This document shows, piece by piece, positions 6,874 through 35,787 of a stretch of 64,000 bases of DNA. Source of the DNA: Flavobacteriaceae bacterium (lineage in GTDB: Bacteria; Bacteroidota; Bacteroidia; Flavobacteriales; Flavobacteriaceae). Under the pieces are notes generated by a model. The model did not search any database. It was given only the letters and a program-made list of their open reading frames with translations, and was not told the origin of the DNA. A program made the position numbers and the translations under genes. Each line of letters opens with the position of its first letter. Positions within the stretch are counted from its first letter, which is position 1. The stretch is from contig CBFIIL010000003.1 in NCBI GenBank assembly GCA_965662485.1, positions 1,144-65,143 on the forward strand. Reading direction: 5' to 3'.

Positions 6874-6876
6874 AAA

Positions 6877-7803: not shown

Positions 7804-7806
7804 AGT

Positions 7807-8841: not shown

Positions 8842-8854
8842 TTATATTAATTTA

Positions 8855-9772: not shown

Positions 9773-9773
9773 A

Positions 9774-10613: not shown

Positions 10614-10622
10614 AATTCGGTG

Positions 10623-11459: not shown

Positions 11460-11679
11460 TGTGCAAAGGTAAGCATAATGCAACAGAAATGTAACTCCAA
11501 TACGACAAATTGAAATCCATAAATTGAGATTAAAATCTACCTCAAAAAAATATTTAATTTATGTTCATTGCATTGATAAGATTATAATTTTAAGATTGAA
11601 TTTTTACAATATCCTCAAAAATTTAATAAAATTTCATTCTACGAAGTTTAAAGTTGACAATTTGTATAATTTAGCTGAA

Positions 11680-12534: not shown

Positions 12535-12544
12535 TTTTATAAAA

Positions 12545-12574
12545 AAAAGCATCATGAAAAATCATAATGCTTTT
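12545..12574. terminator. Probable bidirectional intrinsic terminator between purU and DUF2853 gene
   Basis: AAAAGCATCATGA-AAAA-TCATAATGCTTTT imperfect hairpin between convergent genes. Confidence 0.6.
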
Positions 12575-12595
12575 CTTTAAATTTTAAAGCTTATT

Positions 12596-12934
12596 CTAAT
12601 AAACAGATTCCTTACCAAAATGTTTAGTTAGTAAATAATACACAACTGCGCGGTATTTATTGCGGTTAGACTGACCATAAAGGTCTAGAACTTTGTTGAT
12701 ACCTTCATCTAATTTTGGAGAATCGCTCAGTCCTAGTTTTTTGATTAAAAAGTTGTTACGGATGGTTTCAATCTCATTTGGATCGCTTCCAGCAACAGTA
12801 CTTGCATCATCTTTATAGATAGAAGGACCACAGCCAATAGTGACTTTTGTTAATAATTCCATATCTGGATTTACATTACATTTCGATTTTAAATCCTCCG
12901 CATACTTTTCAATAAGTTGTTCTTTTTTGTTCAT
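12596..12934 (-). CDS. DUF2853 family protein
   Basis: VTIGCGPSIY, NFLIKKLGL, RNKYRAVVYYLL characteristic of this family. Confidence 0.8.
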   Translation of the reverse strand: MNKKEQLIEKYAEDLKSKCNVNPDMELLTKVTIGCGPSIYKDDASTVAGSDPNEIETIRNNFLIKKLGLSDSPKLDEGINKVLDLYGQSNRNKYRAVVYYLLTKHFGKESVY

Positions 12935-13039
12935 AACAATTCTAGGGTTTATTAATAATTATTTTGGTATTGTCAAACACAATATCCTATACGACATGAC
13001 ACATAATTTTTAAAAAAGTCACATTTTTTTTCAAAAAAG

Positions 13040-14725: not shown

Positions 14726-14780
14726 TAGTGTGCAAAGGTATTCATTTTGCACCATTTTGTTATGTTAAAAAAGATGTAAT

Positions 14781-15845
14781 TTAAGAACCTAAAACAGACT
14801 TTATGGTGTTCAATTTTTCCTCTGTTTCGTTCCATTCTTTGTCCACATCGGATTTTGAAGTAATTCCACCTCCTGCAAAAAGTGTTGCAAAATTATTTTC
14901 AAAATGCATACATCGCAAATTAACGACTAGGTTTGTAAATGGAATATGATTTTCATTGGGTATGTTTATTTCACCTAGAAAACCTGAGTAATATGCACGA
15001 TTTATGGTTTCATTATTTCCAATAAAGTCCATAGCCAAAGATTTTGGCGTACCACAAACAGCTGGTGTTGGATGAATACTAAAAATTAGATTTTTTAGAG
15101 ATTCTGAAGTCACCTTAAGTTTACCTATTAAAGTTGTTTGAAGATGCAACAGTTTTCCTGCTTTTATAGTTTTTGGAGCAGAAACTTCTAATTCTGTAAG
15201 GTGCTGTGACAATTCATTTTTTAAAAATTCTGTTACGATTTTTTGTTCTTCATGATTTTTGGTGTCCCACTCCACTTGAGACAAGCCCTTGTAAACTTGT
15301 GTTCCTGCCAAAGCCATGGTCCTTACTTTTCGACCTTTAATTTTCAATAGTGTTTCGGGTGAAGCCCCTAACCAAAATCCTGTTTTCGGATGAAACCAAC
15401 AGTAGACATAAGCTTCTGGATAAGAAGTTGCAATGGACAAAAAAAGTTCAATCTCATCGTAGTTATGAAATTCTAATGTTAAGGTTCGTGCCAAAACTAC
15501 TTTCTCTAATTCAGATGAATTAATCTCATCTATGGCTTGGCGGATTAAATTTTTATGTATTGATGGTTCTGACTTTAGAGCAGTTGGATTATTTTTTTTT
15601 AAAGAAATTGGTGTAGTGTCTAAATGCAATTCTTTTGATGCTTCTAAAGGGATTAAATATGTTGGAATTGTATTATCAAACGGGGAAAAAACAAATCCTA
15701 TTTCTTTAAAATCTGAGGTTGTGTATGTTTTAGTGTTTGTTTGAAGTGTGGCTTTGATTGAAGTTTTACCAAAATCAGAATATAAAACAAATGGCTTGTT
15801 TTCTTGAATTTGTAATTTTATTAAACCAAAGAAAGAGTTGGGCAT
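14781..15845 (-). CDS. menF: Isochorismate synthase
   Basis: KVVLAR, GASPE, ALAGT, HPTPAVCG, AGGGIT chorismate-binding motifs. Confidence 0.9.
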   Translation of the reverse strand: MPNSFFGLIKLQIQENKPFVLYSDFGKTSIKATLQTNTKTYTTSDFKEIGFVFSPFDNTIPTYLIPLEASKELHLDTTPISLKKNNPTALKSEPSIHKNLIRQAIDEINSSELEKVVLARTLTLEFHNYDEIELFLSIATSYPEAYVYCWFHPKTGFWLGASPETLLKIKGRKVRTMALAGTQVYKGLSQVEWDTKNHEEQKIVTEFLKNELSQHLTELEVSAPKTIKAGKLLHLQTTLIGKLKVTSESLKNLIFSIHPTPAVCGTPKSLAMDFIGNNETINRAYYSGFLGEINIPNENHIPFTNLVVNLRCMHFENNFATLFAGGGITSKSDVDKEWNETEEKLNTIKSVLGS

Positions 15846-15851
15846 TATTAG

Positions 15852-16271
15852 TTATTTTGGAAGTGTGATTGTCGTTAATTTACACAAAGAAACAAGATCA
15901 TTATTATCATTTGTAACTTTAATATCAAATACCTGAGTTGTTCGACCGCTATGTATACATTTTGCTTTAGCATAAACAAACCCCTCTTTCACACTTTTTA
16001 CATGTTGAGCCGATAGATCTATACCGCGCACAAAATAGGTGTCTGTATCTAGAAAAATATGTGCTGCAAAACTACCTACGGTTTCAGCCAGTGCTGCAGT
16101 TGCTCCACCATGAAGCACTCCATCGGGCTGATGAACACGATTGTTTACAGGCATTTTTGCAATGATAAAATCGTCTCCAGCATCTACAAATTCAATTTGT
16201 AGAGTTTCCATTAAATTACCTTTACAGACCTTATTGGCTTCATGTAGTAATTCTTCTTTGGATAATTTCAT
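15852..16271 (-). CDS. menI: PaaI/hotdog thioesterase, probable DHNA-CoA thioesterase
   Basis: HQPDGVLHGGATAALAETVGS; directly upstream of menF. Confidence 0.78.
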   Translation of the reverse strand: MKLSKEELLHEANKVCKGNLMETLQIEFVDAGDDFIIAKMPVNNRVHQPDGVLHGGATAALAETVGSFAAHIFLDTDTYFVRGIDLSAQHVKSVKEGFVYAKAKCIHSGRTTQVFDIKVTNDNNDLVSLCKLTTITLPK

Positions 16272-16399: not shown

Positions 16400-17131
16400 T
16401 TAAGCAGTCTTTTTAACAGCTAAAGAGTAAATAACTAGTCCAAATCCAATCTTGTTGATTGCATCTGCAATGTTGTAAAGAACTTGCATGTCAAGCTCCA
16501 TTCCGAAGAATTGTCCTGCTGCTCCATACCATCCCTCAGTTCCAGCCATGTAACCTACTGGATAAATTGCCCATCCAACAAGTACAAACCAGCAAAGGAT
16601 TTTGTGAGCATGTAAAACATCTCCACCAGCTTCTTTAGCTAATTTTGCTGCTCCACCTAACCAGATTTCATAAACAATCACGAAATAAGCAATACCTGAA
16701 ATAGTACCCCAGATTACTGCGTCTCCTCCAGATTCTCCAATGTAACCAGTTACAAGCATAATAACAGATAATAAAATCATCTTGTTAAGTAATGTTTTTG
16801 TAGCACCAGCCACCTTAAGAATCAAATAGAATTCAACACACATTAATGGTACTGTAAGAATCCAATCTACATAACGGAATGCTGTAACATTTTCAAGTGC
16901 TCCAGCCATAGCCGCATCTCTCATGTACCAGTAATGAACTGCTGCAATGAAAGTAATTAAACCAGAAACTAAAACTGAAGATCTCCATTTTTTGTCAAAT
17001 TGGTTTAATGAAAGGAAAAAGAAGGCAGATGCTGCCATCATAGCCATACATCCAATAAAGAATGTGAAATTCACTGGGTCGTTAACGTTACCAGTAACGT
17101 CTGCAACAAGTGGTAAGAATAAATTTGTCAT
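16400..17131 (-). CDS. Proteorhodopsin, light-driven proton pump, green-absorbing type
   Basis: RYVDWILTVPLMCVE (D89, T93, M97, E100 = DTE with Met at tuning site), H66 in AVHYWYMR, DAINK with Schiff-base K227, seven TM helices. Confidence 0.96.
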   Translation of the reverse strand: MTNLFLPLVADVTGNVNDPVNFTFFIGCMAMMAASAFFFLSLNQFDKKWRSSVLVSGLITFIAAVHYWYMRDAAMAGALENVTAFRYVDWILTVPLMCVEFYLILKVAGATKTLLNKMILLSVIMLVTGYIGESGGDAVIWGTISGIAYFVIVYEIWLGGAAKLAKEAGGDVLHAHKILCWFVLVGWAIYPVGYMAGTEGWYGAAGQFFGMELDMQVLYNIADAINKIGFGLVIYSLAVKKTA

Positions 17132-17162
17132 TTTTCTAAAAATTTTGTTAGTTTTGTTTTAA

Positions 17163-17170
17163 CAAATGTA
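17163..17170 (-). promoter_or_regulatory. Bacteroidota -7 promoter element for proteorhodopsin
   Basis: TACATTTG on minus strand, ~30 nt before the ATG. Confidence 0.55.
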
Positions 17171-17241
17171 TCAATTTTTTAGACAAAAGTTTATCAAATG
17201 AATTTTTTTTTGCTCCAAAACTGATTATTTAACAAATATTT

Positions 17242-18135
17242 ATGAAAAAAAATTACAGATTCTCAATCGTGTTTAGCTTCCTTGGATTGTGGATTACTAC
17301 CTTATTTCCCGAAGATTTTGAACTTTTTTTAGGCTTTTTTCTCATTTTCACATTTGGGATGATACATGGTTCTAATGATATGTTGATTGTTAATAAACTA
17401 ACAAATCTTAAAAAAACGAGTTTTATCAAAACCCTCGCAACATATCTCCTCGTTGTCAGCATTGCGGTGTTAATTTTCTACTGGCTACCTAGTATTGCAT
17501 TAATCCTTTTTGTTTGTTTTAGCGCCTATCATTTTGGAGAACAGCACTGGGAAGAAAGTCTTGAATCAATTACGAATACATCGAAAAGACTTTATTTTTT
17601 CGCCTATGGTCTTTTTGTTTTATTTATGGTGTTTTATTTTAATGAAGCAAGTGTTAAAATGATTGTGAATGAAATCAGTGGGATGACATTAAATCAATTA
17701 TATACTGAACATGTATTAATAACACTTGGAGTTTTTATGCTAAGCTTTTTAGCTGTAATGTTGAGACAGAAAGAAATTAAGTTAAATACAGTTATAACAG
17801 AGCTGTTTACTCTTTTGGTGCTTGTTATAATATTCAAATCCTCTTCGCTCATATGGGGGTTCACCATTTATTTTATCATCTGGCACAGTATCCCATCATT
17901 ATTGGAGCAAATACGATTTGCATATGGTAGTTTAGACCGAAAAAATATTATAAATTATACAAAAGCTGCCCTTCCTTATTGGCTAGTTTCTTTGGTTGGA
18001 ATGACTTTACTTTATTTTGTTTTTAAGGACGAAAAACATTTTTATAGTTTGTTCTTTGCTTTTATTGCCGCTGTAACCTTTCCACATTCTATTGTAATGT
18101 TGAAAATGTTCACTAAAAAAAGTAAACATTTTTAA
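17242..18135 (+). CDS. blh: Brp/Blh beta-carotene 15,15'-dioxygenase (retinal synthesis)
   Basis: Four His motifs (GMIHGSND, AYHFGEQH, IWHSIPS, TFPHSIVM), multi-TM, adjacent to rhodopsin. Confidence 0.93.
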   Translation: MKKNYRFSIVFSFLGLWITTLFPEDFELFLGFFLIFTFGMIHGSNDMLIVNKLTNLKKTSFIKTLATYLLVVSIAVLIFYWLPSIALILFVCFSAYHFGEQHWEESLESITNTSKRLYFFAYGLFVLFMVFYFNEASVKMIVNEISGMTLNQLYTEHVLITLGVFMLSFLAVMLRQKEIKLNTVITELFTLLVLVIIFKSSSLIWGFTIYFIIWHSIPSLLEQIRFAYGSLDRKNIINYTKAALPYWLVSLVGMTLLYFVFKDEKHFYSLFFAFIAAVTFPHSIVMLKMFTKKSKHF

Positions 18136-21755: not shown

Positions 21756-23135
21756 ATGGAACATATTAAACAACTTAAAAACACACAAAAAACCTTTTTC
21801 AAATCTGGAAAAACTCGAGATATATCATTTATTAAGGCAAAACTAAAAGCACTCAAAAGCACAATCATTTCAAATGAAAATGCAATTTATGATGCACTTT
21901 ACAAAGATTTTAAAAAATCTAAATTTGAAACTTATTTTAGTGAAATTGGCATTCTAATTTCCGAAATAGAAATGACACTAAAAAACATTGAAAAATGGAA
22001 TAAACCAAAGAAAGTGCGATCTGCTGCACTTAATTTTCCTTCGAAAGACTATATTTTTAGCGAGCCGTACGGAACAGTTCTTATTATTGCGCCATGGAAT
22101 TATCCATTTCAGCTAGCTATAGCCCCCATTATTTCGGCCATAGCAGCAGGAAATACTGTTATACTAAAGCCAAGCGAGCTCACACCTCATACAGCACAAA
22201 TTATTGAAGATATTCTTTCTGATGTATTTAAAAAAGCACATTTAAGCGTTATTCAAGGAGGAGTCCCAGAAACAACTGCTCTTTTGGACGAACGCTGGGA
22301 TTACATTTTTTTTACTGGAAGTGTCCCCGTAGGAAAAATTGTTGCCAAAGCAGCTGCTCAATATATGACTCCAGTAACTCTGGAATTGGGCGGCAAAAAC
22401 CCATGTATTATTGATGATAGTGTTGATATAAAATTAACAGCAAAACGTTTGGTTTGGGGCAAATTTGTCAATGCTGGACAAACTTGTATTGCTCCTGATT
22501 ACATTTTAGCAAAAGAATCTATAAAATCTGAGCTCATCGAACAGCTCAAGATTGAAATTACAAAAGCATATGGGGAAAATCCTCAACAATCTGAAGATTA
22601 TCCTAGAATTGTAAACGGTAAAAATCTTAAACGACTTGTAGATATGCTAAAAGAGGGCGACATTGTACATGGTGGTGACATTGATAATGATGATAACTAT
22701 CTTGCTCCAACGCTAATAAATGAACCCACATTGGATAGTAAAGTAATGAAAGGTGAAATATTTGGTCCAATCTTACCCATCTTAAAATATTCGGATACAA
22801 CAGAAATCTCCAATATCATTAGCCGTTTTGAAAAACCCCTGGGTTTTTATGTGTTTTCAAACCGTAAAGAATTCTATACAACGCTCATCAAAACATTTAG
22901 TTTTGGGGGCGGATCTATAAATGATACTATGATTCATTTTGGCAACCCTAGATTGCCTTTTGGTGGTGTTGGCGATAGCGGTATTGGTGCTTATCATGGG
23001 CGTCTTGGATTCGATACATTTTCGCATAAAAAAGGAATAACTATCAAAGCCAATTGGTTGGATATTCCACTGCGATATGCACCCTACAAAAACAAACTTA
23101 AAAAAATAAAAAATGCTTTTAAATGGTTGGGTTAA
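21756..23135 (+). CDS. Aldehyde dehydrogenase (ALDH3-like)
   Basis: PWNYP, FFTGS, TLELGGKNP, NAGQTCIAPDY, EIFGPILP. Confidence 0.93.
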   Translation: MEHIKQLKNTQKTFFKSGKTRDISFIKAKLKALKSTIISNENAIYDALYKDFKKSKFETYFSEIGILISEIEMTLKNIEKWNKPKKVRSAALNFPSKDYIFSEPYGTVLIIAPWNYPFQLAIAPIISAIAAGNTVILKPSELTPHTAQIIEDILSDVFKKAHLSVIQGGVPETTALLDERWDYIFFTGSVPVGKIVAKAAAQYMTPVTLELGGKNPCIIDDSVDIKLTAKRLVWGKFVNAGQTCIAPDYILAKESIKSELIEQLKIEITKAYGENPQQSEDYPRIVNGKNLKRLVDMLKEGDIVHGGDIDNDDNYLAPTLINEPTLDSKVMKGEIFGPILPILKYSDTTEISNIISRFEKPLGFYVFSNRKEFYTTLIKTFSFGGGSINDTMIHFGNPRLPFGGVGDSGIGAYHGRLGFDTFSHKKGITIKANWLDIPLRYAPYKNKLKKIKNAFKWLG

Positions 23136-24826: not shown

Positions 24827-24883
24827 AAAATGTTAATGTTTGTTTAATTATTGATAATAAACTTTGAACAAGCTTTATTTTTG
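24827..24883 (+). promoter_or_regulatory. Promoter with conserved upstream box (copy 1)
   Basis: AAAATGTTAATGTTTGTTTAATT at 24827-24849 and TATTTTTG -7 element at 24876-24883; same layout at 30479-30535. Confidence 0.65.
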
Positions 24884-24900
24884 TAGAAATCAATTTAACA

Positions 24901-25557
24901 ATGGCTAAAAAAACTAAACTTACTAAACAAAGACTTATTGAATTATTTATGGACAATGTTTTGGAACACAATGAAACTCCAAAAAGCGTCTATGCATTTG
25001 CAAAAATGAATCATTTTGAAGAATCCGAATTTTATAGCTTTTTTGGTTCATTTCAAGCTCTTGAATCTTCAATATTTGAAACTTTTTTCGACAATACGAT
25101 AAAAACCCTTAAAAAAAGTAAAGACTACAAAAATTACGACGCTCAAAATAAATTATTGAGCTTTTATTTTACTTTTTTTGGAAATCTTACTGCTAATCGT
25201 AGCTATGTTGTCCATGCTTTGGAAACTTCAATTGGAGGGCTTAATACCCTAAAAAAACTCAAACCACTACGAAAAAAGTTTCTTGAATTTGTCGATGAAT
25301 TAGAACTTGTTGATTTTGAAATAAAAAATAAACGCATTGATGATATTAAAGATAATGTGGTGAATGAATCCTATTGGATTCAGGCACTTGTAACACTAAA
25401 ATTTTGGTTAGATGATGACTCTACAGATTTTGAAAAGACTGATCTTTTTATTGAAAAATCTATTGCAGCAAGTTTCGAATTAGCACACACCAAACCTCTA
25501 AAGAGCGTTGTAGATTTTGGAAAGTTTTTGTTTAAAGAAAAAATGGGGGCTAATTAA
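24901..25557 (+). CDS. TetR-fold protein with degenerate HTH; COQ9-like C-terminal motif
   Basis: HTH-like KSVYAFAKMNHFEESEFYSFFGS; C-terminal FWLDDDSTDFEKTDLFIEKSI. Confidence 0.7.
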   Translation: MAKKTKLTKQRLIELFMDNVLEHNETPKSVYAFAKMNHFEESEFYSFFGSFQALESSIFETFFDNTIKTLKKSKDYKNYDAQNKLLSFYFTFFGNLTANRSYVVHALETSIGGLNTLKKLKPLRKKFLEFVDELELVDFEIKNKRIDDIKDNVVNESYWIQALVTLKFWLDDDSTDFEKTDLFIEKSIAASFELAHTKPLKSVVDFGKFLFKEKMGAN

Positions 25558-26870
25558 TGAAATCAATAGACCGAATCCCAACATCAAAATTACAACGTGC
25601 CTCAAAAATTGTTTCAACAGGAGCAAAAGTTGGAGTTAATTATATTAAGTATTACGGAGAAAGATTGAGTAAATCTGAAGAAATTGCAAAAGACAATTTA
25701 AATAAAAATAATGCTGACGATATTTACAGTGGACTAAAACAGCTAAAAGGAAGTGCTTTAAAAGTTGCACAAATGCTCAGCATGGAAAAAAATATTTTAC
25801 CACAAGCTTATGTTGAGAAATTCTCTTTGGCTCAATTTTCCGTTCCGCCTCTATCCTCTCCTCTGGTTGTCAAAACATTCAAAAAATATTTTGGCAAAGC
25901 ACCTGATGTTATTTTTGATGAATTTGATGCTAATTCTGTTAACGCAGCTAGCATTGGCCAGGTTCATCGTGCCAAAAAAAATGGAAAAGATTTGGCAGTT
26001 AAAATTCAATATCCTGGTGTTGCAGACAGCATAAAATCTGATTTATCCTTGGTAAAGCCAATTGCAATTAAAATGTTTAACATTAAAGGAAAAGATTCGG
26101 ACAAATATTTCAAAGAAGTTGAAGATAAATTAACTGAAGAAACCGATTATTCTTTAGAAATTAAACAAAGTCAAGAAATTGCAAAGGCCTGTGCGCACAT
26201 TCCTAATATTCTGTTTCCAACATATTACAAAGAATATTCATCAAACAGAATATTGACGATGGATTATATGCAGGGTCAACATTTATCGGAGTTTGCGAAA
26301 CACAACACAGACCAAGAAAATGCGAATAGATTAGGTCAAGCGTTGTGGGATTTTTATATGCATCAAATTCATAACCTTAAAAAGGTACACGCAGACCCGC
26401 ATCCTGGCAATTTTTTAATTAATGACAACATACAACTAATCGCTCTTGATTTTGGATGCATGAAAGTAATTCCAGATGAATTTTATTTACCATACTTTGA
26501 ATTGGCTAATCCAAATATTATCAATAATCCTCGCTTGTTCTCTGAAAAATTATACGAATTAGAAATTCTTACTCCCAATGATACCAAAGACGAAACCACG
26601 TTTTTTACAGCGATGTTTCATGAGTTATTAAGTGTATTTACACTTCCATTTCAACAAGATGGTTTTGATTTTTCAGATCCAGAATTTTTTGGGAAAATTG
26701 GCGATTTGGCAGAGCGCTACAGTAAAAATACAGAATTAAGGAAGTTCAATAGCAACAGAGGATCAAAACATTTTATTTATATGAACAGAACATTTTTTGG
26801 ATTGTACAATTTAATGTTTGATTTAAAATCCAATGCTGTAAAAATTAATCAATTTCAACATTACAAATGA
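25557..26870 (+). CDS. ABC1/UbiB/COQ8-family atypical kinase
   Basis: ALKVAQMLS (KxGQ-like), AASIGQVH, AVKIQYPGVA, EETDY, HADPHPGNF, DFG. Confidence 0.92.
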   Translation: MKSIDRIPTSKLQRASKIVSTGAKVGVNYIKYYGERLSKSEEIAKDNLNKNNADDIYSGLKQLKGSALKVAQMLSMEKNILPQAYVEKFSLAQFSVPPLSSPLVVKTFKKYFGKAPDVIFDEFDANSVNAASIGQVHRAKKNGKDLAVKIQYPGVADSIKSDLSLVKPIAIKMFNIKGKDSDKYFKEVEDKLTEETDYSLEIKQSQEIAKACAHIPNILFPTYYKEYSSNRILTMDYMQGQHLSEFAKHNTDQENANRLGQALWDFYMHQIHNLKKVHADPHPGNFLINDNIQLIALDFGCMKVIPDEFYLPYFELANPNIINNPRLFSEKLYELEILTPNDTKDETTFFTAMFHELLSVFTLPFQQDGFDFSDPEFFGKIGDLAERYSKNTELRKFNSNRGSKHFIYMNRTFFGLYNLMFDLKSNAVKINQFQHYK

Positions 26871-27502
26871 TACACCTAAAACGTCAAGATTTTGAAGAAT
26901 TAGATAATATATTTAGAATAAATCTGATAAATAGTTGCTCCGGATTTAAATCAGCAAACCTTATTGGAACAAAGTCAAATTTAGGAATTCCAAATGTGGC
27001 TGTTTTTAGTTCAGTAACTCATTTGGGTTCCAATCCACCTTTACTTGGTGTTATATTTAGGCCTGTAACTGATGTTCCACGAAATACTTATGAAAACATC
27101 AAAGAAACAGGGCAATTTACAATTAATCATATTGACGCTTCTATCATAAAAGACGCTCATCACACTTCTGCTAAGTACGATAAGGACGTTTCAGAATTTG
27201 ATATAACTAATCTAGAGGAAGAATATAAAAATGGTTGGCATGCTCCTTTTGTAAAAAATGCACCCATTCAAATTGCACTTACCTACTGCGAGGAATACGA
27301 AATAAAGGCCAATGGTACTATTCAACTCATAGGAGAAATTAAAGATTTATTTATAAAATCTGATCTTCTTGAAAATGATGGTTTTATTAATTTATCTAAA
27401 GCTAATATTATAGCGATCAATGGATTAGATGGATATACCGTACCAACACTTAAAGAGCGAATGAGTTATCAAAGGCCAAAAAAAATAGTAAAAACGAAAT
27501 AA
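26867..27502 (+). CDS. Flavin reductase-like (split-barrel) protein
   Basis: [36 protein letters not shown]. Confidence 0.85.
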
Positions 27503-27509
27503 CAACTGG

Positions 27510-27647
27510 TTGAAAAAATCTGAGTTACCATCAAAAATCTGTGTTGTGTGTCAACGTCCATTTTCGTGGCGCAAGAAATGGGAACGTGACTGGGAGTTTG
27601 TAAAATATTGTAGTAAAAAATGCAGCAACAACAAGACACATCGCTAA
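27510..27647 (+). CDS. DUF2256-like Cys4 small protein, 45 aa (not in ORF track)
   Basis: TTG start; [45 protein letters not shown]; overlaps the DASH gene start. Confidence 0.85.
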
Positions 27648-28927
27648 TTTGGTTTAGAAATGATTTAAGGACACAAGACAATACTGTTTTGTTGTCGGCT
27701 CTATCAACTTCTAAACAGGTTATAGGAGTGTATTTTTTAGAGCCTAATCAGTTTAAAATAAATAAATATGGGTTCAAAAAAATGGAGAAGTATAGAGTTA
27801 AATTTCTTCTTGAAACTTTAAATTGTCTTCAACAAGAGCTTCACAAATTAAATATCACACTTTTAGTGTATCAAGATTCTGCAAAAGAGCAAATGAAGCA
27901 TATTGTGGAAACTTATAATGTTAGTACTATTTATTTACAAAAGGAATGGACTGATGAAGAAAATACTTCGTTTAATGATGTAAAGGATAGTCTTAACGAA
28001 ACAGTTATTTTTCATGACATTTATGATCAATTTTTATTTCATCCAGAGGATGTTCCATTTCACTTTAAGGATACGCCAAAGGTATTTACACAGTTCAGAA
28101 AAACATTAGAGAAAAAAGCAATAGTTAGAAACTTAATAAAAATTCAGCCACAGAGTGCAACATACTTGTTGAAAACTACAACTAAAATTCCCACTTTGAG
28201 AGACTTAGGCTACGAAGATTTTGAAGTAGACAAACGATCTGTTTTTCCATTTCTTGGTGGAGAAAATGCAGCATTCCAGCGGTTGGAACATTACTTCTTT
28301 GAAACTAAATCACTTGGTGTTTATAAAAAAACAAGAAATGGGCTTTTAGGGCTCAACTACAGTTCAAAGTTTTCTCCTTGGCTTGCAAATGGAAGCATCT
28401 CAGCGAGACAAATTTATTGGAACGTTAAAGAATTTGAAAGTCAATTTTTCTCTAACCAGTCGACCTATTGGTTGATATTTGAATTGATTTGGCGTGATTT
28501 CTTTAAGTATGTATCCCTTAAGCATGCTAATGAAATTTTCAAAATAGATGGCATTCTAAAACAACAATATCAATGGTCGGACCATCAAAAATATGTCGAT
28601 GAATGGATTCATGGCGAAACTTCAGACGATTTTGTAAACGCCAACATGTTAGAACTTAAAAATACGGGCTGGATGAGCAACCGAGGTCGGCAAAACGTAG
28701 CTTCATTTTTTGCGAAAACACAAAAACTAGACTGGCGAATTGGCGCTGCTTATTTTGAGTCAATGTTAATCGATTATGATGTACATAGCAATTATGGGAA
28801 TTGGATGTATGTATCAGGGGTTGGAAATGACCCTAGAGATCGTGTCTTTAATGTAAAACTTCAAGCCGAACGCTATGATTCAAATAAGAAATATAGGAAA
28901 CAATGGCTACAATCTAAACTCTTTTAA
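27620..28927 (+). CDS. Cryptochrome DASH
   Basis: [58 protein letters not shown]. Confidence 0.93.
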
Positions 28928-30460
28928 ATGAAAACATTACGACTCATTTTAGGCGATCAATTAAATCCACATCACTCTTGGTATAACCACATAGACGACA
29001 ATGTTTTATACTGTATGTTTGAAATGCGGCAGGAGACTGACTATGTGAGGCATCATATTCAAAAAGTAATTGGCTTTTTTTCAGCTATGCGAGAATTTGC
29101 CAGCCTGTTGGAGCAAAAGAGTCATAATGTCATTTATTTTAATATTGTAGATGTTGAAAATCAACATGATTTAGAAAAAAATATAAAACTTTTAATTGAA
29201 CAAAACGCTGTAGAGAATTTTGAATATCAAGCACCAGATGAGTACCGTTTGGAAGAACAATTAAAATCAATATGTAATGATTTGTCAATTAGCAGCTCAA
29301 GTTGTGATACAGAGCATTTTTTAACTACAAGAAACGAGCTTACTGATTTTTTTGAAGGAAAAAAACAACTCCTAATGGAGCGTTTTTATCGTAATATGCG
29401 AAAAAAACATCATATTTTAATGGTGGGGGAACAGCCTGAAGGTGGCGTTTGGAATTATGACCATAACAACAGAAAAAAATGGAAAGGAAGTCCAGAAATA
29501 CCTAATTACAAGGCCTTCAAAAACGATGTAAAACAAATTTGCAAGGATATTTCATCGAGCAAATTAGATACTATTGGGCTTTTTGAAGGCGATTATTTTG
29601 AATATCCCATAAACTTAAAACAAGCTCAAGAACAGTTAGCCTACTTTTGCAAATTCCTGCTCCCTCATTTTGGAGACTATCAAGATGCGCTACACAACGA
29701 AGAAGTCTATCTTTTTCACTCGCGTTTGTCTTTTGCGATGAATACAAAAATTATCAGCTCAAAGGAAATAATTGAGGCTGTTATGACACATTATCGCCAA
29801 CACATGGATAATATTGATATTGCACAAGTTGAAGGCTTTATTCGTCAAGTTATTGGTTGGCGGGAGTATATGCGTGGCATGTATTGGAAAGAAATGCCAT
29901 CTTACAAAACATTAAATGAGTTAGAAAATCATGAGGATATTCCTGAGTTCTTTTGGACAGGAAATACTAAAATGAATTGTCTTCAAAAAACTATCAAAAA
30001 CTCTTTGGAACATGCCTATGCACATCACATCCAGCGATTGATGATTACTGGAAATTATTTGTTGCTAACACAAACGCATCCAGATGCTGTAGATGATTGG
30101 TATTTGGGAATTTACATAGATGCCATTCAATGGGTGCAATTGCCAAATACACGAGGGATGAGTCAGTATGCCGATGGTGGTAAGATAGCGACAAAACCTT
30201 ATGTTTCATCTGGCAGCTATATCAATAAAATGAGCAACTATTGTAGTTCCTGCCACTACAAGGTGAAAGAAAAAATAGGCCCTAATGCATGCCCATTTAA
30301 TAGTTTGTATTGGAATTTTTTGGATGATAAAAAAACAAAACTCTACAACAATCAACGCATGCGAATGATGTATTCTGTTTTAAATAAATTTTCAGCAGAT
30401 GATTTACATGAAATGAAACTTCGTGCAGCTGAAATTATTGCACATCCAGAGCAATTTTAA
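28928..30460 (+). CDS. FeS bacterial cryptochrome/(6-4) photolyase (CryB/PhrB-like)
   Basis: LILGDQL, HIQK, YAHHIQRLM, four cluster Cys (MNCL, YCSSCHY, ACPFN), TKPYVSSGSYI. Confidence 0.92.
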   Translation: MKTLRLILGDQLNPHHSWYNHIDDNVLYCMFEMRQETDYVRHHIQKVIGFFSAMREFASLLEQKSHNVIYFNIVDVENQHDLEKNIKLLIEQNAVENFEYQAPDEYRLEEQLKSICNDLSISSSSCDTEHFLTTRNELTDFFEGKKQLLMERFYRNMRKKHHILMVGEQPEGGVWNYDHNNRKKWKGSPEIPNYKAFKNDVKQICKDISSSKLDTIGLFEGDYFEYPINLKQAQEQLAYFCKFLLPHFGDYQDALHNEEVYLFHSRLSFAMNTKIISSKEIIEAVMTHYRQHMDNIDIAQVEGFIRQVIGWREYMRGMYWKEMPSYKTLNELENHEDIPEFFWTGNTKMNCLQKTIKNSLEHAYAHHIQRLMITGNYLLLTQTHPDAVDDWYLGIYIDAIQWVQLPNTRGMSQYADGGKIATKPYVSSGSYINKMSNYCSSCHYKVKEKIGPNACPFNSLYWNFLDDKKTKLYNNQRMRMMYSVLNKFSADDLHEMKLRAAEIIAHPEQF

Positions 30461-30556: not shown

Positions 30557-30985
30557 TTGGTTTTAGATACAACACATTACGATAAAGAACATAAATTACT
30601 GATCAATGAATTTGTTGGTGAATCTTACAGCTTCTGGCAAGCCCTCAAGCGTGGAGGCATTGGCTCAAAACGAATGATTGTAGACAAGCTAAGCCCAAAC
30701 CTAAACTATATTTCAAATATCACATCCGATATAAATTATGCCAATATTGAGATAAGAAAAAAAGGAATCTTAATCCATATCACCAAAGGGCTTAAAAACT
30801 TTACCTGGGCCATACCATTTTATCAACTAGTTTTTTACAAAACAAACTTTACAAGTATTCATGCACAAGGGAAATTTATTCACTTTAGAAATTCAAAAAC
30901 TTTTAAAGAGAATAAATCTTTTTTTAGAAACTTGATGAATGAAAAGATAAATTTTGATCAACAGTACATTTTGCCTCAACTATGA
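30557..30985 (+). CDS. Hypothetical protein
   Basis: 142-aa ORF with TTG start, first gene after promoter copy 2, overlaps next gene. Confidence 0.7.
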   Translation: MVLDTTHYDKEHKLLINEFVGESYSFWQALKRGGIGSKRMIVDKLSPNLNYISNITSDINYANIEIRKKGILIHITKGLKNFTWAIPFYQLVFYKTNFTSIHAQGKFIHFRNSKTFKENKSFFRNLMNEKINFDQQYILPQL

Positions 30986-31254
30986 AACTCACAGCTGTTG
31001 AAATAGATAGAATAATTGAAATGGCGTGGGAAGACCGCACCACTTTTGATGCAATAAAATTCCAATTTGGGCTTTCAGAACAACAGGTTATTGAACTGAT
31101 GCGAAATCAAATGAAACCGAAAAGTTTCAGACATTGGCGCGCTAGAGTTCAAGGACGAAAAACAAAACATCAAAAATTGCGTGAATTTGAATCTGGTCGA
31201 TTTAAATGCACTAGACAACGAGCAATTTCCAATAACAAAATTTCAAAACGCTAA
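30982..31254 (+). CDS. TIGR03643/DUF2805 family protein
   Basis: RIIEMAWEDRTTFDAIKFQFGLSE...SFRHWRARVQGRKTKH. Confidence 0.85.
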   Translation: MKLTAVEIDRIIEMAWEDRTTFDAIKFQFGLSEQQVIELMRNQMKPKSFRHWRARVQGRKTKHQKLREFESGRFKCTRQRAISNNKISKR

Positions 31255-31262
31255 AAATTAAT

Positions 31263-31940
31263 ATGGATATAAAAAAAACAAATCATCTAAATGGAATTTC
31301 TCATTACGAAATTGGTGATGATCACCTCTACACTGGACTAGAAACTCCAATAAAAAAAGATGCTTTTCTGTTAAGTGACGAAGAAAAAAAGAAAAAAATT
31401 TCAATCCTTTTTGAGGAGATTATGAATGTTATTGGCTTAGATTTAGAAGATGATTCTTTGAAAGGAACTCCTGATCGTGTTGCTAAAATGTACATTGATG
31501 AAATCTTTTCTGGGTTAAACCCAAAAAATAAGCCTCAGATAGCTTTGTTTGATAACAAATATCAATACAATCAGATGTTGGTTGAGAAAAATATTACATT
31601 CTACTCTAACTGTGAACATCATTTTGTTCCCATAATAGGTAAAGCACATGTTGCTTACATTTCTTCTGGGAAAGTCATTGGATTATCTAAGCTAAACAGA
31701 ATAGTACAATTTTTTGCAAAACGTCCGCAAGTCCAAGAACGCTTAACTAATCAAATTGGTGAGGAATTGAAAAACATACTGGGAACCAATGATGTTGCAG
31801 TTATTATTGACGCCAAGCATCTCTGCGTTTCATCCAGAGGAATAAAAGACGAAACGTCATCAACAGTCACTGCCTTTTACAGTGGTGCATTTACCAACTC
31901 AGCAAAAATTGCAGAGCTCAATAATTATATAAATTCATAA
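31263..31940 (+). CDS. folE: GTP cyclohydrolase I
   Basis: TPDRVAKMY, SNCEHHFVP, GLSKLNR, RPQVQERLT, HLCVSSRG. Confidence 0.96.
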   Translation: MDIKKTNHLNGISHYEIGDDHLYTGLETPIKKDAFLLSDEEKKKKISILFEEIMNVIGLDLEDDSLKGTPDRVAKMYIDEIFSGLNPKNKPQIALFDNKYQYNQMLVEKNITFYSNCEHHFVPIIGKAHVAYISSGKVIGLSKLNRIVQFFAKRPQVQERLTNQIGEELKNILGTNDVAVIIDAKHLCVSSRGIKDETSSTVTAFYSGAFTNSAKIAELNNYINS

Positions 31941-31941
31941 T

Positions 31942-32166
31942 ATGAGTACAGTTCAAAAAGGAGAAGAATTTTTAAACAAAAGTTTGAAATTTAAAAATAC
32001 AAGCGAAAGAATTGAAGCCTCAAGAGAAGTAAAGGCTTTAATTCTAGGGATTAATGAAATTTACAAATCAAACAAGGATCCAAAATTGATGGATTTGATG
32101 AAAGACTTAACCCTAGTTAAACAAAAAATTGAAAAACGCTTAAAAGGAAGGCCTTTAACATCATGA
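31942..32166 (+). CDS. Small helical hypothetical protein
   Basis: 74-aa ORF tightly packed between folE and SDR gene. Confidence 0.65.
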   Translation: MSTVQKGEEFLNKSLKFKNTSERIEASREVKALILGINEIYKSNKDPKLMDLMKDLTLVKQKIEKRLKGRPLTS

Positions 32167-32846
32167 AAACAATCATTATTGTCGGTGGAAGTCGAGGGAT
32201 TGGTAGAGCAACTATTGAAGCGCTTTTGCCTAATTATAAGTTAATTAACATCAGTAGAAACGCACCAGATTTTGAACATGCAAATTTAACACATTACAAC
32301 TGTGATGTGATTTCAGACGATCTGCCAAATATTGAGAGTGCTGATGGTCTTATATATTGCCCTGGGAGCATAAACTTAAAGCCGTTCAAAAGATTAAGTT
32401 TAGAAGATTTTAGAAACGACTTTGAGATTAATGTTATTGGTGCAATAAAAAGTATTCAGGCCTATTCTCCTGCTCTTATAAAATCTGAATCTGGTTCAAT
32501 TGTGCTTTTTAGTACAGTAGCGACTGCAATGGGCATGCCTTTTCATGCAAGCGTTTCTACTGCAAAATCTGCTGTGGAAGGGCTTATGAAGTCTATTGCA
32601 GCAGACCTTGCTCCAAAAGTAAGGGTTAATGCTATTGCGCCAACAATCACACAAACAGATTTGGCTGCAAAATTGCTACGCAATGAACGTATGGTAGAAA
32701 ATACAATACAAAGACATCCCTTAAAAAAATTCTTGGAACCCGGCGAAGTTGCATCAATGGTTGAGTATTTAATTTCAGATGTATCAAAATCAATTTCAGG
32801 CCAAGTTTTTAAATTGGATTGTGGAATTGTATCCTTAAAAATTTAG
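32163..32846 (+). CDS. Short-chain dehydrogenase/reductase
   Basis: GGSRGIG Rossmann motif, VRVNAIAP; His in place of the usual catalytic Tyr (FHASVSTAK). Confidence 0.88.
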   Translation: MKTIIIVGGSRGIGRATIEALLPNYKLINISRNAPDFEHANLTHYNCDVISDDLPNIESADGLIYCPGSINLKPFKRLSLEDFRNDFEINVIGAIKSIQAYSPALIKSESGSIVLFSTVATAMGMPFHASVSTAKSAVEGLMKSIAADLAPKVRVNAIAPTITQTDLAAKLLRNERMVENTIQRHPLKKFLEPGEVASMVEYLISDVSKSISGQVFKLDCGIVSLKI

Positions 32847-32847
32847 T

Positions 32848-33390
32848 ATGAAGATTATAAAGCTATTAACAATTTTTTTATTCAGTATAAATCTAGCGAA
32901 AGCGCAATACAACAAAAAAATGAGTATTTACGATATTAATATTAATGCCTTAGATGGTACACAGGTAGACTTAAAAACATTTCAAGGAAAACATATTTTG
33001 TTTGTAAATGTTGCGTCTGAATGTGGTTTTACAAATCAATACGAAGGACTTCAAAAACTATATGATACCTATAAAGATGATTTGATGGTTATTGGTGTTC
33101 CTTGTAATCAATTTGGACAACAAGAACCTGGAAATTCAGAACAAATTCAATCGTTTTGTCAAAAAAATTATGGGGTCACTTTCTTGATGACTGAAAAAGT
33201 AAATGTAAAAGGAAAAGATAAGCATCCATTGTACGAATGGCTTACAAACAAAGACTTAAATGGAAAGAACAGTACCACAGTAAAATGGAATTTCCAAAAG
33301 TATGTTATTGGTCGAAACGGTGAATACATTGATTATTTTTATTCGATGACAAAACCAATGAGTAGTAAGATCACAAAATTAATTCAATAA
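32848..33390 (+). CDS. Glutathione peroxidase-family (Cys) peroxidase
   Basis: VNVASECGFT, PCNQFGQQEPG, KWNFQKY. Confidence 0.93.
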   Translation: MKIIKLLTIFLFSINLAKAQYNKKMSIYDININALDGTQVDLKTFQGKHILFVNVASECGFTNQYEGLQKLYDTYKDDLMVIGVPCNQFGQQEPGNSEQIQSFCQKNYGVTFLMTEKVNVKGKDKHPLYEWLTNKDLNGKNSTTVKWNFQKYVIGRNGEYIDYFYSMTKPMSSKITKLIQ

Positions 33391-33392
33391 AA

Positions 33393-33560
33393 ATGTTTGG
33401 ATTATTTAAAAGAAAAACTGAAACTGAAAAACTGCAAATTCGCTACAAAAAATTAATGGCAGAATGGCATAACCTATCATCAATAGACCGTGCAGCTAGT
33501 GATGAAAAATATGCTGAGGCACAGGAGGTTTTAACTCAAATTGAAAAATTAGAACAATAA
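33393..33560 (+). CDS. Small protein, Lacal_2735-like, 55 aa (not in ORF track)
   Basis: MFGLFKRKTETEKLQIRYKKLMAEWHNLSSIDRAASDEKYAEAQEVLTQIEKLEQ*; fills the gap, stop overlaps the tspO ATG. Confidence 0.82.
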   Translation: MFGLFKRKTETEKLQIRYKKLMAEWHNLSSIDRAASDEKYAEAQEVLTQIEKLEQ

Positions 33561-34021
33561 TGAAATTTACATCAACATTAATACTGTTTTTGGTTCTTAA
33601 TTTTGGAGCATTATGGATAGGCACAGTGTTGATGAATGATGGTCCACAATCTTTATGGTACACATCTCTAAATCAAGCACCGTGGACTCCAATGGGATGG
33701 GTGTTTGGAGCAGCTTGGACATGTGTCATGATTTTCTTTTCTGTATTCATGACTTTTCTTGTTCAAAATGAAAACCTAAAAAAAGTATCCTTATTGTTTG
33801 CCATACAATTTGTATTGAATGTTTCATGGAATTACGTTTTTTTTAATCAACACCTTACAGGTCTTGGGATTCTGATAATCATTCTTTTAACCATACTTAC
33901 ATTTTATTTCTTAATTGCATTCAAATCTACATTAAACAACAATCGTTTCTTTGTTCTACCCTATTGTTTATGGCTTCTCTTGGCCACATCTCTTAACGCT
34001 TATATTGTGATTTATAACTAG
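33560..34021 (+). CDS. tspO: TspO/MBR tryptophan-rich sensory protein
   Basis: WYTSLNQAPWTPMGWVFGAAW, LNVSWNYVFF, PYCLWLLLATSLN. Confidence 0.9.
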   Translation: MKFTSTLILFLVLNFGALWIGTVLMNDGPQSLWYTSLNQAPWTPMGWVFGAAWTCVMIFFSVFMTFLVQNENLKKVSLLFAIQFVLNVSWNYVFFNQHLTGLGILIIILLTILTFYFLIAFKSTLNNNRFFVLPYCLWLLLATSLNAYIVIYN

Positions 34022-34489
34022 ATGAAAATATATACACTACACACAAAACAGAATCTTCCGATTTCTGTAGATGAAGCTTGGCAGTTTTTGTCCAGTCCAG
34101 AAAATTTAAAAACTATAACACCAGATTATATGGGGTTCCATATTCTGTCTGGAGCTGATCGCGAAATGTTTCCTGGGCAAATCATCCAATACATTGTTAC
34201 ACCAGTTTTAGGAATAAAAACTAAATGGGTAACTGAAATAACACATGTTAAAAACAAAGCATACTTTGTAGACGAACAACGTTTTGGACCATACGCCTTG
34301 TGGCATCATAAACATTTTATTCGCCCTATTGAGGGTGGCGTTGAAATGGAAGATATTGTGGATTACAAGCTCCCATTTGGACTACTTGGCAGACTAGCGC
34401 ATCCTATTTTAGTAAAACCAAAATTGAAAGAAATTTTTGATTATCGTCACAAGAAACTTATTGAACTTTTTGGTCCGTATAAGTCATGA
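34022..34489 (+). CDS. SRPBCC (START/Bet v1-like) lipid-binding protein
   Basis: FLSSPENLKTITP, WVTEIT, FVDEQRFGPYALWHHKH, IFDYR. Confidence 0.87.
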   Translation: MKIYTLHTKQNLPISVDEAWQFLSSPENLKTITPDYMGFHILSGADREMFPGQIIQYIVTPVLGIKTKWVTEITHVKNKAYFVDEQRFGPYALWHHKHFIRPIEGGVEMEDIVDYKLPFGLLGRLAHPILVKPKLKEIFDYRHKKLIELFGPYKS

Positions 34490-35787
34490 ATCCAACAGCA
34501 CTATTTTGGTTTAGAAGAGATCTACGCTTACATGATCAACATGGGTTGTATAAGGCCCTAAAAAACCACAAAAGCGTACTTCTCATTTTTATTTTTGATC
34601 CTGAAATTCTTGACAATTTACCTGAAGATGACGCTAGAGTTGATTTTATTTATAATCAGATAAAAACACTCAACAATGCACTAGAAAAATACAATACTGC
34701 AATTCACACGTATTATGGAAAACCTTTGGATGTTTTTCAAAAATTGACCAAAGAGAACAACATTCAAGCCGTGTATGCCAACCATGATTATGAACCCTAT
34801 GCTCTCCAAAGAGACCAAAAAGTTGTTGACTTTCTTAAGGGGCATAAAATTGAATTCAAGACCTACAAAGACCAAGTAATTTTTGAAAAAAATGAGGTAA
34901 AAAAAGACGATGGCCTGCCCTACAAAGTATACACCCCCTACTCAAAAAAATGGTTGAATTTATTTAAAGAAGAATACGTTTCACCATACTGTAGTGAAAC
35001 ACTTTTAGAGCATTGCACAAAAATTGAAACTCCAAAATGGGTTGAAATGAACGTAATGGGTTTTGTACCTTCAAAAGTTAAAATCACTCCCTATACTATA
35101 GACAATAAGCTGATTGATTTATATGAAGAACAACGAAACACACCCTCAGTGGCAGGAACTTCAAGACTTGGACCACATCTACGCTTTGGAACTGTAAGTG
35201 TACGGGAAATCGTTTTAAAAGCAAGAAAAAGAGAAAATATCACTTTCCTAAAAGAACTCATTTGGCGAGAGTTTTTTATGCAAATACTATGGCATTTTCC
35301 ACATACGGTATCCAAAAGTTTTAAGCCACAATATGATGCTATACAGTGGAGAAATAACCAAGAAGAATTTGAAAAATGGTGTGCAGGCAGAACGGGTTAT
35401 CCTCTTGTAGACGCTGGCATACGAGAATTAAATGAAACAGGATTTATGCATAACAGAGTGCGAATGCTTGTAGGAAGTTTTTTATGTAAGCATTTACTGA
35501 TAGATTGGCGATGGGGAGAGGCCTACTTTGCCCAAAAACTTCATGATTTTGAATTATCAAGTAATGTAAGTAATTGGCAATGGGTAGCTGGTTGTGGTGT
35601 AGATGCTGCTCCATATTTTAGAATATTTAATCCCACAACACAAATTACAAAATTTGACAAAGAGCATAAATATATCAAAAAGTGGGTGCCTGAATATCAG
35701 AAATTTGATTACCCCTCTCCTATTGTAGACCATAAATTTGCCAGAGAAAGATGCTTGAAAACCTATAAAAAAGCTTTGAATAAATAG
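34486..35787 (+). CDS. phrB: Deoxyribodipyrimidine (CPD) photolyase
   Basis: WFRRDLRLHD, TSRLGPHLRFG, ELIWREF, TGYPLVDAG, MHNRVRM, DAAPYFRIFNP. Confidence 0.93.
   Translation: MNPTALFWFRRDLRLHDQHGLYKALKNHKSVLLIFIFDPEILDNLPEDDARVDFIYNQIKTLNNALEKYNTAIHTYYGKPLDVFQKLTKENNIQAVYANHDYEPYALQRDQKVVDFLKGHKIEFKTYKDQVIFEKNEVKKDDGLPYKVYTPYSKKWLNLFKEEYVSPYCSETLLEHCTKIETPKWVEMNVMGFVPSKVKITPYTIDNKLIDLYEEQRNTPSVAGTSRLGPHLRFGTVSVREIVLKARKRENITFLKELIWREFFMQILWHFPHTVSKSFKPQYDAIQWRNNQEEFEKWCAGRTGYPLVDAGIRELNETGFMHNRVRMLVGSFLCKHLLIDWRWGEAYFAQKLHDFELSSNVSNWQWVAGCGVDAAPYFRIFNPTTQITKFDKEHKYIKKWVPEYQKFDYPSPIVDHKFARERCLKTYKKALNK

Follow-up and report, generated by a model that had tools for sequence, protein, structure and literature searches.

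What does a gene for a TetR-like protein do when its stop codon overlaps the start of a kinase gene at the head of a light-stress cluster? This question is raised by a locus of a Flavobacteriaceae bacterium (assembly GCA_965662485.1; apparently a small marine genome, 1.75 Mb and 88% complete) in a 64,000-nucleotide stretch of contig CBFIIL010000003.1, which we analysed whole, call the window and use for all coordinates unless a locus is named. On its forward strand, 24901..25557 encodes a TetR-fold protein of 218 amino acids of the family TetR_C_23 (the partner; Pfam E 1.6e-38), and 25557..26870 encodes a UbiB/ABC1 atypical kinase-like ATPase of 437 amino acids (the kinase; Pfam ABC1 E 2.7e-56) from a clade in which KxAQ replaces KxGQ. 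A sequence-only reading had taken the two, together with an SRPBCC gene further downstream, for a COQ8/COQ9/COQ10-like module rather than a regulator–kinase pair. The features it quoted were all located, i.e. HFEESEFYSFF at partner residues 38–48, the TAATG overlap of stop and start codons at 25555–25559, three ABC1 motifs in the kinase and KVAQ at kinase residues 69–72 (25761..25772, by alignment); FWLDDDSTDFEKTDLFIEKSI is likewise present, at partner residues 168–188, but does not end the protein as had been stated, with 30 residues lying beyond it. The explanation we favour, to which we would give an even chance, is that a COQ8-fold ATPase and a TetR-fold partner jointly handle an isoprenoid membrane lipid, the partner being likely off DNA.

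We surveyed the pairing of the two genes in 201 Bacteroidota genomes sampled across the phylum and in 251 Bacteroidia genomes sampled at class level. In the phylum sample, TetR_C_23 was present in 59 genomes and a kinase of this clade in 60, and the kinase lay directly downstream of the TetR_C_23 gene in 57 of the 59 (1.4 kb off in one genome and unlinked in another). The sixtieth kinase genome, G111, gave no Pfam match for the partner and carries a diverged partner, devoid of its helix-turn-helix (HTH), immediately upstream (E 3.5e-8). The partner was found in 70 of the 251 Bacteroidia, with the kinase within 0.8 kb in 60. Partner and kinase are thus a real conserved unit, as the earlier reading had supposed, and their pairing is far beyond chance; because related genomes are not independent, we offer these counts as a description of inheritance and not as a statistical test. 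Eight small genomes of one family (f78, L173–L182) have the two genes unlinked and an altered partner C-terminal helix, with crtI in two of the eight, and they form a natural test of whether partner and kinase still interact.

The kinase model (predicted local distance difference test score, pLDDT, 86.1) matched COQ8A with Z 33.0 (root-mean-square deviation, rmsd, 2.9 over 361 aligned residues), residues 51–437 aligning and the COQ8-type N-terminal extension being kept, whereas mycobacterial ABC1 proteins gave Z 23–26 (best 26.1) and other kinases 12 or less. The predicted COQ8 fold was therefore upheld. Orthology to COQ8 was not, as the kinase scored 88 bits against COQ8B, compared with 262 bits for a true bacterial COQ8-like protein from Ruegeria, and the two fell in separate clades of a quick 49-row tree. 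Like COQ8A/COQ8B (ADCK3/4) and their alphaproteobacterial and Vibrio relatives, the kinase has approximately 440 residues, no C-terminal membrane helices and the A-rich loop AASIG, and no transmembrane helix was predicted (maximum 19-residue hydropathy 1.13); unlike them, it has KxAQ, the catalytic loop HADPHPGN (QTDPN in the COQ8 group) and a dedicated TetR-fold neighbour. Its best PDB sequence matches were MSMEG_1954 (111 bits) and Rv3197 (109 bits), with E 2.5e-38 to the MABP-1 model, and it shares with these a similar catalytic loop and the same length class, but their fold similarity reaches only the mycobacterial Z range given above and they form a separate clade; two actinobacterial records searched contained no match to TetR_C_23. 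Escherichia coli UbiB belongs to the same superfamily, but aligned over residues 56–305 only, lies on a distant branch and has the ubiE–ubiJ context that is absent at the kinase. As a query, E. coli UbiB found this kinase as its sole match in the 88%-complete genome, in which an E. coli UbiJ query found no match; against TIGR01982 the kinase gave E 9e-45, below the cut-off. Across 106 aligned kinase rows K149, E195, D280, N285 and D298 are invariant and A71 occurs in all 106, so that KxAQ is fixed in the clade, while deeper-branching partner-linked relatives retain KxGQ. One account of the UbiB/ABC1 family describes KxGQ as invariant (10.1101/2022.03.22.485346). By analogy the kinase may work like COQ8, which a recent paper presents as an ATP-gated chaperone of lipid intermediates (10.64898/2026.02.03.703536).

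The partner matched TetR_C_23 (PF17931) with 132.2 bits (cut-off 29.1), as did all 31 members of its alignment, and its model (pLDDT 92.8) has the three-helix N-terminal HTH of TetR proteins. Searching the PDB with the partner sequence alone returned nothing meaningful. The best fold matches were 3C07 from Streptomyces coelicolor (Z 17.2, rmsd 2.9, 196 aligned) and 3NI7 from Nitrosomonas europaea (Z 16.8, rmsd 3.0, 172 aligned), both deposited as TetR regulators and both sharing a W-x-x-D motif with the partner; the recognition helix of 3NI7 is acidic too. This motif lies in the helix of residues 168–188 (25402..25464), where the pattern W-x-x-D-x-S, common to COQ9, 3NI7 and 3C07 and derived after the families had been inspected, occurs in 145 of 150 family members, 35 of 37 COQ9 proteins and none of 56 ordinary TetRs. 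D172 is invariant in the 150 partner rows, and the best-conserved columns lie mostly in the ligand domain. The D-x-S-x-x-x-x-x-T helix near the C-terminus of COQ9 is also present, and the likeness to it that had been proposed proved real, human COQ9 reading MMQDSSPDFEDTWRFLENRV and matching residues 169–188 at 8 of 20 positions (ungapped, by eye).

Regional profiles divided the protein in two. For the C-terminal motif the medians were 5.3 bits for COQ9, 7.9 for 3NI7-like proteins and −1.2 for ordinary TetRs, whereas for the N-terminal HTH region they were 8.4 for ordinary TetRs and −2.1 for COQ9. A C-terminal profile built from 15 partners with an intact HTH gave COQ9 a median of 14.0 bits against 0.3 for the 56 ordinary TetRs. 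The C-terminal profile of the family reached 3NI7 at E 0.26 and 3C07 at E 2.4 only. In addition, a 3NI7-like protein of Tistrella passes the COQ9 Pfam cut-off and aligns to the partner family over 170 columns (probability 88.5), and Sphingomonas COQ9 matched human COQ9 and 3NI7 alone in the PDB at E<0.01. The partner itself stayed below the COQ9 cut-offs, with 14.3 against 20.5 bits for PF08511 (E 0.032, residues 165–190) and 17.8 against 74.55 for TIGR02396. From these comparisons we place the ligand domain on the COQ9-containing branch of the TetR superfamily, so that the proposed kinship holds for this half of the protein, and that the partner is no COQ9 orthologue. Two 3NI7-like genes of alphaproteobacteria (Tistrella and Azospirillum; L068:742-2061 and L071:1860-3165) adjoin a phasin-like gene and, unlike the partner gene, no kinase, and this may point to a function at lipid or polyhydroxyalkanoate granules.

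COQ9 is described as a lipid-binding TetR-fold protein for which DNA binding is not predicted (PMC9774615). With COQ9 (PF08511, TIGR02396; PDB 4RHP, 6AWL and 6DEW) the partner shares its fold, a presumably inactive DNA-binding domain, the D-x-S-x-D-F-E-x-T helix, the presence of an additional amphipathic helix towards the C-terminus and a UbiB-family ATPase as companion. It differs in having no match to the W-x-x-A-G-D-x-x-x-D-Y-N-x-Y-T-K-R stretch conserved in bacterial COQ9, in occurring largely in bacteria without ubiquinone, in having its kinase in the same operon and in an HTH nearer to ordinary TetRs. No profile alignment was obtained over the bacterial COQ9 stretch that matches the COQ7-binding patch of human COQ9 (D225–L247, PMC9774615), and COQ7 was not searched for. 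The extra helix, residues 199–216 (25495..25548; model and conservation), has conserved D205, K208 and F209 and a hydrophobic moment of 0.55, close to the 0.53 of an ordinary helix elsewhere on the partner's surface; it is a possible counterpart of COQ9 helix 10, and structural alignments to COQ9 stop at about residue 199.

The HTH (residues 30–51; 24988..25053) is degenerate in sequence throughout the family, which we compared as 148 rows (two of the 150 being gapped) with 39 anchored ordinary TetRs (17 of the 56 could not be anchored). Position 43, Thr in ordinary TetRs, is Asp or Glu in 97 of 148 family members and in 1 of 39 ordinary TetRs; position 51, ordinarily Lys, has become Phe or Leu, with Lys or Arg left in 5 of 148 compared with 36 of 39; and the mean net charge of residues 40–47 is −1.9 in the family and +1.0 in ordinary TetRs. 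The TetR_N profile (PF00440) found no match in this partner. Two lineages have gone further: G078 has a 160-residue partner without HTH beside its kinase, and the partner next to the G111 kinase lacks the HTH too, so that the partner gene outlives its DNA-binding domain, and in G150 the HTH is eroded. These findings support the view that DNA binding has probably been lost by the partner. The HTH-less partner of G111 (L050:9831-10892) shares an open frame with an upstream domain that we take, by recognition, to be CYTH-like, and may be a fusion to it or have an internal start of its own.

A GTDB genome scan seeded with the kinase of G323, whose pair has a canonical HTH, gave at least 80 loci, of which at least 67 among those listed have a partner gene. 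Among the matches listed, at least 15 partners were classed as having an intact HTH, and all 14 that could be anchored keep both Thr43 and Lys51; these pairs come from Pseudomonadota, Campylobacterota, Myxococcota, Acidobacteriota, Planctomycetota and Gemmatimonadota, plus one metagenome-assembled genome of Flavobacteriales. In the kinase tree mentioned above (midpoint-rooted, with a composition bias flagged and eukaryotic COQ8 not among its rows), partner-linked kinases form one clade (support 96 in the Shimodaira–Hasegawa-like approximate likelihood ratio test, SH-aLRT), with a partner detected in 26 of 27 rows; within it the kinases of Bacteroidota and Rhodothermota with a degenerate HTH are nested (98), intact-HTH lineages forming the sister and earlier branches. 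Because intact-HTH pairs of six other phyla bracket the Bacteroidota on this tree, the loss of DNA binding in the Bacteroidota partner looks derived. The assertion that this is not a regulator–kinase pair therefore needs turning round, since the ancestral form was probably exactly that, and ‘regulator–kinase pair’ and ‘COQ module’ are better read as before and after. Short palindromes upstream of intact-HTH partners, ATGAGTATACTCAT (L286:3145-3265) and TGAGCATGCTCA (L322:3167-3287), are candidate ancestral operators. In G323 (L253 / L175:4633-10538) the pair is followed by a 396-residue gene that we take to be an MpaB/DUF2236 oxygenase-like gene, and by one for a presumably HXXEE-like membrane protein; MpaB/DUF2236 oxygenases are a family linked to isoprenoid side-chain cleavage.

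What controls the pair now can be read in part from its promoter. An inverted repeat, TGTTTAA-N16-TTAAACA, lies just 5′ of the presumed −7 element in 39 of the 51 upstream regions taken from Flavobacteriaceae, with a spacer of 16 in 36; of 57 short loci, 7 had yielded no full-length pair in the calling of open reading frames (ORFs). Here the putative operator, TGTTTAA-N16-TTGAACA at 24841..24870, scored 19.4 bits compared with a shuffled maximum of 12.8, and a putative Bacteroidota housekeeping −7 element follows at 24876..24883, for which we assumed the consensus TAnnTTTG, a pattern seen in 28 of the 51 regions. An exact-pattern search of five genomes found 18 sites, and 17 that we examined precede, by our own recognition of the genes, the pair (three), crtI (two), carH (two, and probably a third), SRPBCC genes (two), fasciclin-like lipoprotein genes (four), an MsrA-like gene (one) and other genes (two). 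A reversed-pattern control gave 2 strand matches compared with 32, whereas a shuffled-genome control did not discriminate (2 compared with 2 matches in 0.6 Mb), and the support for the palindrome is therefore its conservation together with the reversed-pattern control.

One of the five genomes, G054, has palindrome sites and no pair, and for this reason the reader of the palindrome is probably a CarH-like protein; the palindrome is likely the operator of a CarH/LitR-type B12 photoreceptor rather than of the partner. A CarH-like protein is encoded in the present genome and has three of the four motifs published as signatures (GxxW, EH and GxxxP; NxxH in place of GxxH). As in CarH/LitR regulons, an operator-like site is common to carH, crtI and other stress genes, but here it has inverted half-sites around a spacer of 16 bp, and its binding protein is one that we infer. 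That it is common to crtI, carH and SRPBCC genes suggests light control of the pair, in Flavobacteriaceae only. A weaker copy (15.2 bits, spacer 17, at 17155) lies between the divergent rhodopsin-like and blh genes (16400–18135), so that the rhodopsin module may share the regulon, and another (11.6 bits) between 30460 and 30557, before a 142-residue ORF, suggests an internal promoter in the light cluster. At G000 C21:4860-8605 a carH-like gene, whose product has three of the four photoreceptor signature motifs, is followed by crtI, crtB and crtZ.

The position of the pair in a light cluster is lineage-specific. A photolyase, a cryptochrome, DUF2805 or the 142-residue ORF lies within about 8 kb of the pair in only 9 of 80 wider loci, and a flavin reductase-like gene is near it in 8 of 80; in Flavobacteriaceae 27 of 59 kinase genes have a photolyase or cryptochrome gene less than 15 kb away, a count depressed by contig breaks. 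The proposed link to light stress is supported in Flavobacteriaceae. On two alphaproteobacterial replicons, COQ8-like kinases also lie beside genes that we take to be light-related (L052:3520-6122 and L054:4600-11164; photolyase-like FAD-binding, PAS and folE), and ABC1 kinases may therefore have joined light responses more than once.

Taken together, the retention of a lipid-pocket domain after the loss of DNA binding, in a protein tied to a COQ8-fold ATPase, makes a two-protein lipid-handling unit the simplest reading of the pair. Its ancestor would have been a TetR repressor that sensed a ligand and headed an operon shared with the ATPase. Within Bacteroidota, the ligand domain would have been retained for its own sake, the ATPase extracting or releasing a lipid at the membrane surface in the manner of COQ8 and the partner holding or presenting it in the manner of COQ9; in Flavobacteriaceae a CarH-type B12 photoreceptor would then have assumed transcriptional control and brought the pair into the light-stress response. 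The role of the pair would be accessory to lipid synthesis and no core step of it. We rejected a core role in carotenoid synthesis, as 128 crtI-positive genomes (a count covering G272 and G332) have no partner gene. We likewise rejected one in menaquinone synthesis, as the profile search did not find PF17931 in 181 of 251 Bacteroidia or in any of 14 control genomes, Bacteroides thetaiotaomicron included. Because carotenoid synthesis does not track the pair, menaquinone synthesis can dispense with it in many relatives and most of the carrier phyla use menaquinone, we infer that the cargo is most likely menaquinone or its light-damaged products under stress, with carotenoids second. A prediction of the kinase–partner complex from 106-row alignments (score 0.04, mark 0.32) weighs neither for nor against binding.

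Several observations weigh against this joint lipid-handling role and its parts. Human COQ9 matched the partner with Z 13.8 (rmsd 4.3–5.0), level with 3BJB (13.9), 3LWJ (13.8) and KstR (13.7) and so no closer than the best ordinary TetRs, and the family profile reached Sphingomonas COQ9 with a probability of 3%, over the motif only and from a shallow alignment (Neff 1.8); on these grounds the COQ9 orthology that had been proposed is not supported. The best sequence-profile matches of the partner are the fatty-acyl-CoA-sensing FadR repressors. In the HTH, E41, F44 and Y45 are 86–91% conserved, which shows continuing selection on this region, and 8 of 14 intact-HTH relatives have an acidic residue at position 41, so an ‘acidic helix’ alone proves little. 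The kinase tree that orders the events is only a quick version. The genes are unlinked in 10 of the 70 partner-bearing Bacteroidia, and of five such genomes searched, four had the kinase elsewhere; G229 gave no kinase match with this query. crtI tracks the pair weakly, being present in 60 of 70 genomes with the partner and 128 of 181 without. The palindrome is upstream of the pair in only 8 of 76 wider loci, most of this genome's ten strong sites stand before genes without an obvious connection to light (one site, on C34, is probably inside a coding region), and the site at this genome's crtI is weak (6.8 bits). Finally, the COQ8 paper itself argues that menaquinone synthesis needs no ATP-driven extraction (10.64898/2026.02.03.703536).

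Of the other explanations, the best survivor, which we nevertheless consider unlikely, is a signalling switch, in which the partner has left the DNA and is a ligand-sensing regulator or a substrate of the kinase, controlling it through direct contact as an inhibitor, an activator or a phospho-acceptor. An ancestor resembling a regulator would suit it, as would the retention of all catalytic residues, including those of the loop HADPHPGN, and the clade-wide KxAQ and the conserved acidic HTH residues could make a new interface; a plant ABC1 protein is reportedly a true kinase. However, the kinase model keeps the N-terminal extension that is described for COQ8 as blocking the protein-substrate site, and the HTH surface on which such contacts might depend can vanish altogether, as in G078 and G111.

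We regard it as quite unlikely that the partner still binds DNA as a transcription factor, its recognition helix being unusual, and remains an ordinary regulator heading its target operon. Its HTH does fold normally in the model (helices 30–36 and 41–45, pLDDT 97–98), the N-terminal profile favours ordinary TetRs over COQ9 and there is a conserved palindrome in the partner promoter. Yet Thr43 and Lys51, both kept in every anchored intact relative, are replaced family-wide, and two lineages have lost the HTH. Autoregulation through the palindrome was rejected on the spacing of its half-sites, which at 23 bp apart are too far from each other for one TetR dimer, and on its presence in G054, which lacks the pair.

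Very unlikely, in our estimation, is a non-isoprenoid hydrophobic ligand such as an acyl-CoA, oxidized fatty acids or a xenobiotic, by comparison with the macrolide-binding Rv3197/MABP-1. The sequence matches of the kinase to MSMEG_1954 and Rv3197, and those of the partner to FadR, are what one would then expect, but the fold of the kinase is nearer to COQ8A than to Rv3197, and the FadR similarity stops at about residue 145, before the conserved COQ9-like C-terminal motif.

The SRPBCC gene (34022..34489) does lie in the cluster, nine genes and 7.2 kb past the kinase. Its protein gave a weak, sub-threshold SRPBCC-type match only (Polyketide_cyc, Pfam E 0.0032), and a COQ10-type START domain in it is no more than a possibility. 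In 81 Flavobacteriaceae genomes the SRPBCC gene had a photolyase less than 5 kb away in 62 of 71, and the kinase less than 15 kb away in only 25 of 57, with a start-to-start distance to the kinase never below 4.5 kb; 14 genomes had the SRPBCC gene and no kinase, and it was near the pair in 1 of the 80 wider loci (about 8 kb on each side). It is therefore a photolyase neighbour, likely in the same regulon as the pair, and its status as a third subunit is not demonstrated. A three-protein COQ8/COQ9/COQ10-like complex shuttling carotenoids or retinal precursors is thus highly improbable: the 25 genomes just mentioned, the palindrome that the SRPBCC gene shares in two genomes and one Flavobacteriaceae locus where the pair faces photolyase, SRPBCC, carH and what we take to be crtZ, crtB and crtI would favour it, but these distances and absences and ten pair-bearing genomes without a crtI match count against it, and the three-part module is not supported.

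The remaining genes of the cluster are all on the forward strand. An accessory flavin reductase-like gene (26867..27502; Pfam Flavin_Reduct) overlaps the kinase stop and is followed by a DASH cryptochrome (27620..28927; TIGR02765, above cut-off), a photolyase-related protein (DPRP; 28928..30460, PF04244), the 142-residue ORF, DUF2805, folE, a short-chain dehydrogenase/reductase (SDR), glutathione peroxidase and TspO (30557..34021, from the ORF list and family searches) and, after the SRPBCC gene, a DNA photolyase at the cluster end (34486..35787; Pfam/NCBIfam). The 142-residue ORF has no Pfam or NCBIfam match and travels with DUF2805. Upstream lie genes that we take to be men genes (5806–16271), named from translated N-termini by recognition, with a rhodopsin-like gene also named by recognition, and blh, identified by family searches of the window. 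Presumably pirin-like (3374–4096) and aldehyde dehydrogenase (21756–23135) genes lie near the men, rhodopsin and light genes, and either could relate to oxidative or apocarotenoid metabolism. In the G150/G078 family what we take to be a polyprenyl-synthetase-like gene stands divergent beside the pair (L047:4561-5535 and L048:10645-11619). Searching plasmids with a homologue of the partner yielded no TetR_C_23 family member, and four large plasmid-collection records gave no match to PF17931.

We found no description of this pair in the literature searched, a search whose scope did not extend to most subscription journals and supplements. The original role of bacterial COQ9 has been called unclear (PMC5714133), and how UbiB-family ATPases act outside ubiquinone synthesis is a largely open question for which the pair offers a simple bacterial system: it sits in a small operon of culturable menaquinone bacteria with no confounding ubiquinone pathway, so that cargo, coupling and phenotype are directly testable. 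The intact, degenerate and HTH-less versions also form a natural series for the repurposing of a repressor fold. We suggest, tentatively and with less confidence than in the joint lipid-handling role itself, that the pair may represent an undescribed clade of UbiB/ABC1 ATPases with its own COQ9-related partner, in which this series would record a TetR repressor becoming a lipid-handling subunit, a course that would parallel the origin of COQ9 or share a branch with it, and that may give menaquinone bacteria a two-protein, ATP-driven means of extracting or presenting quinones under light stress.

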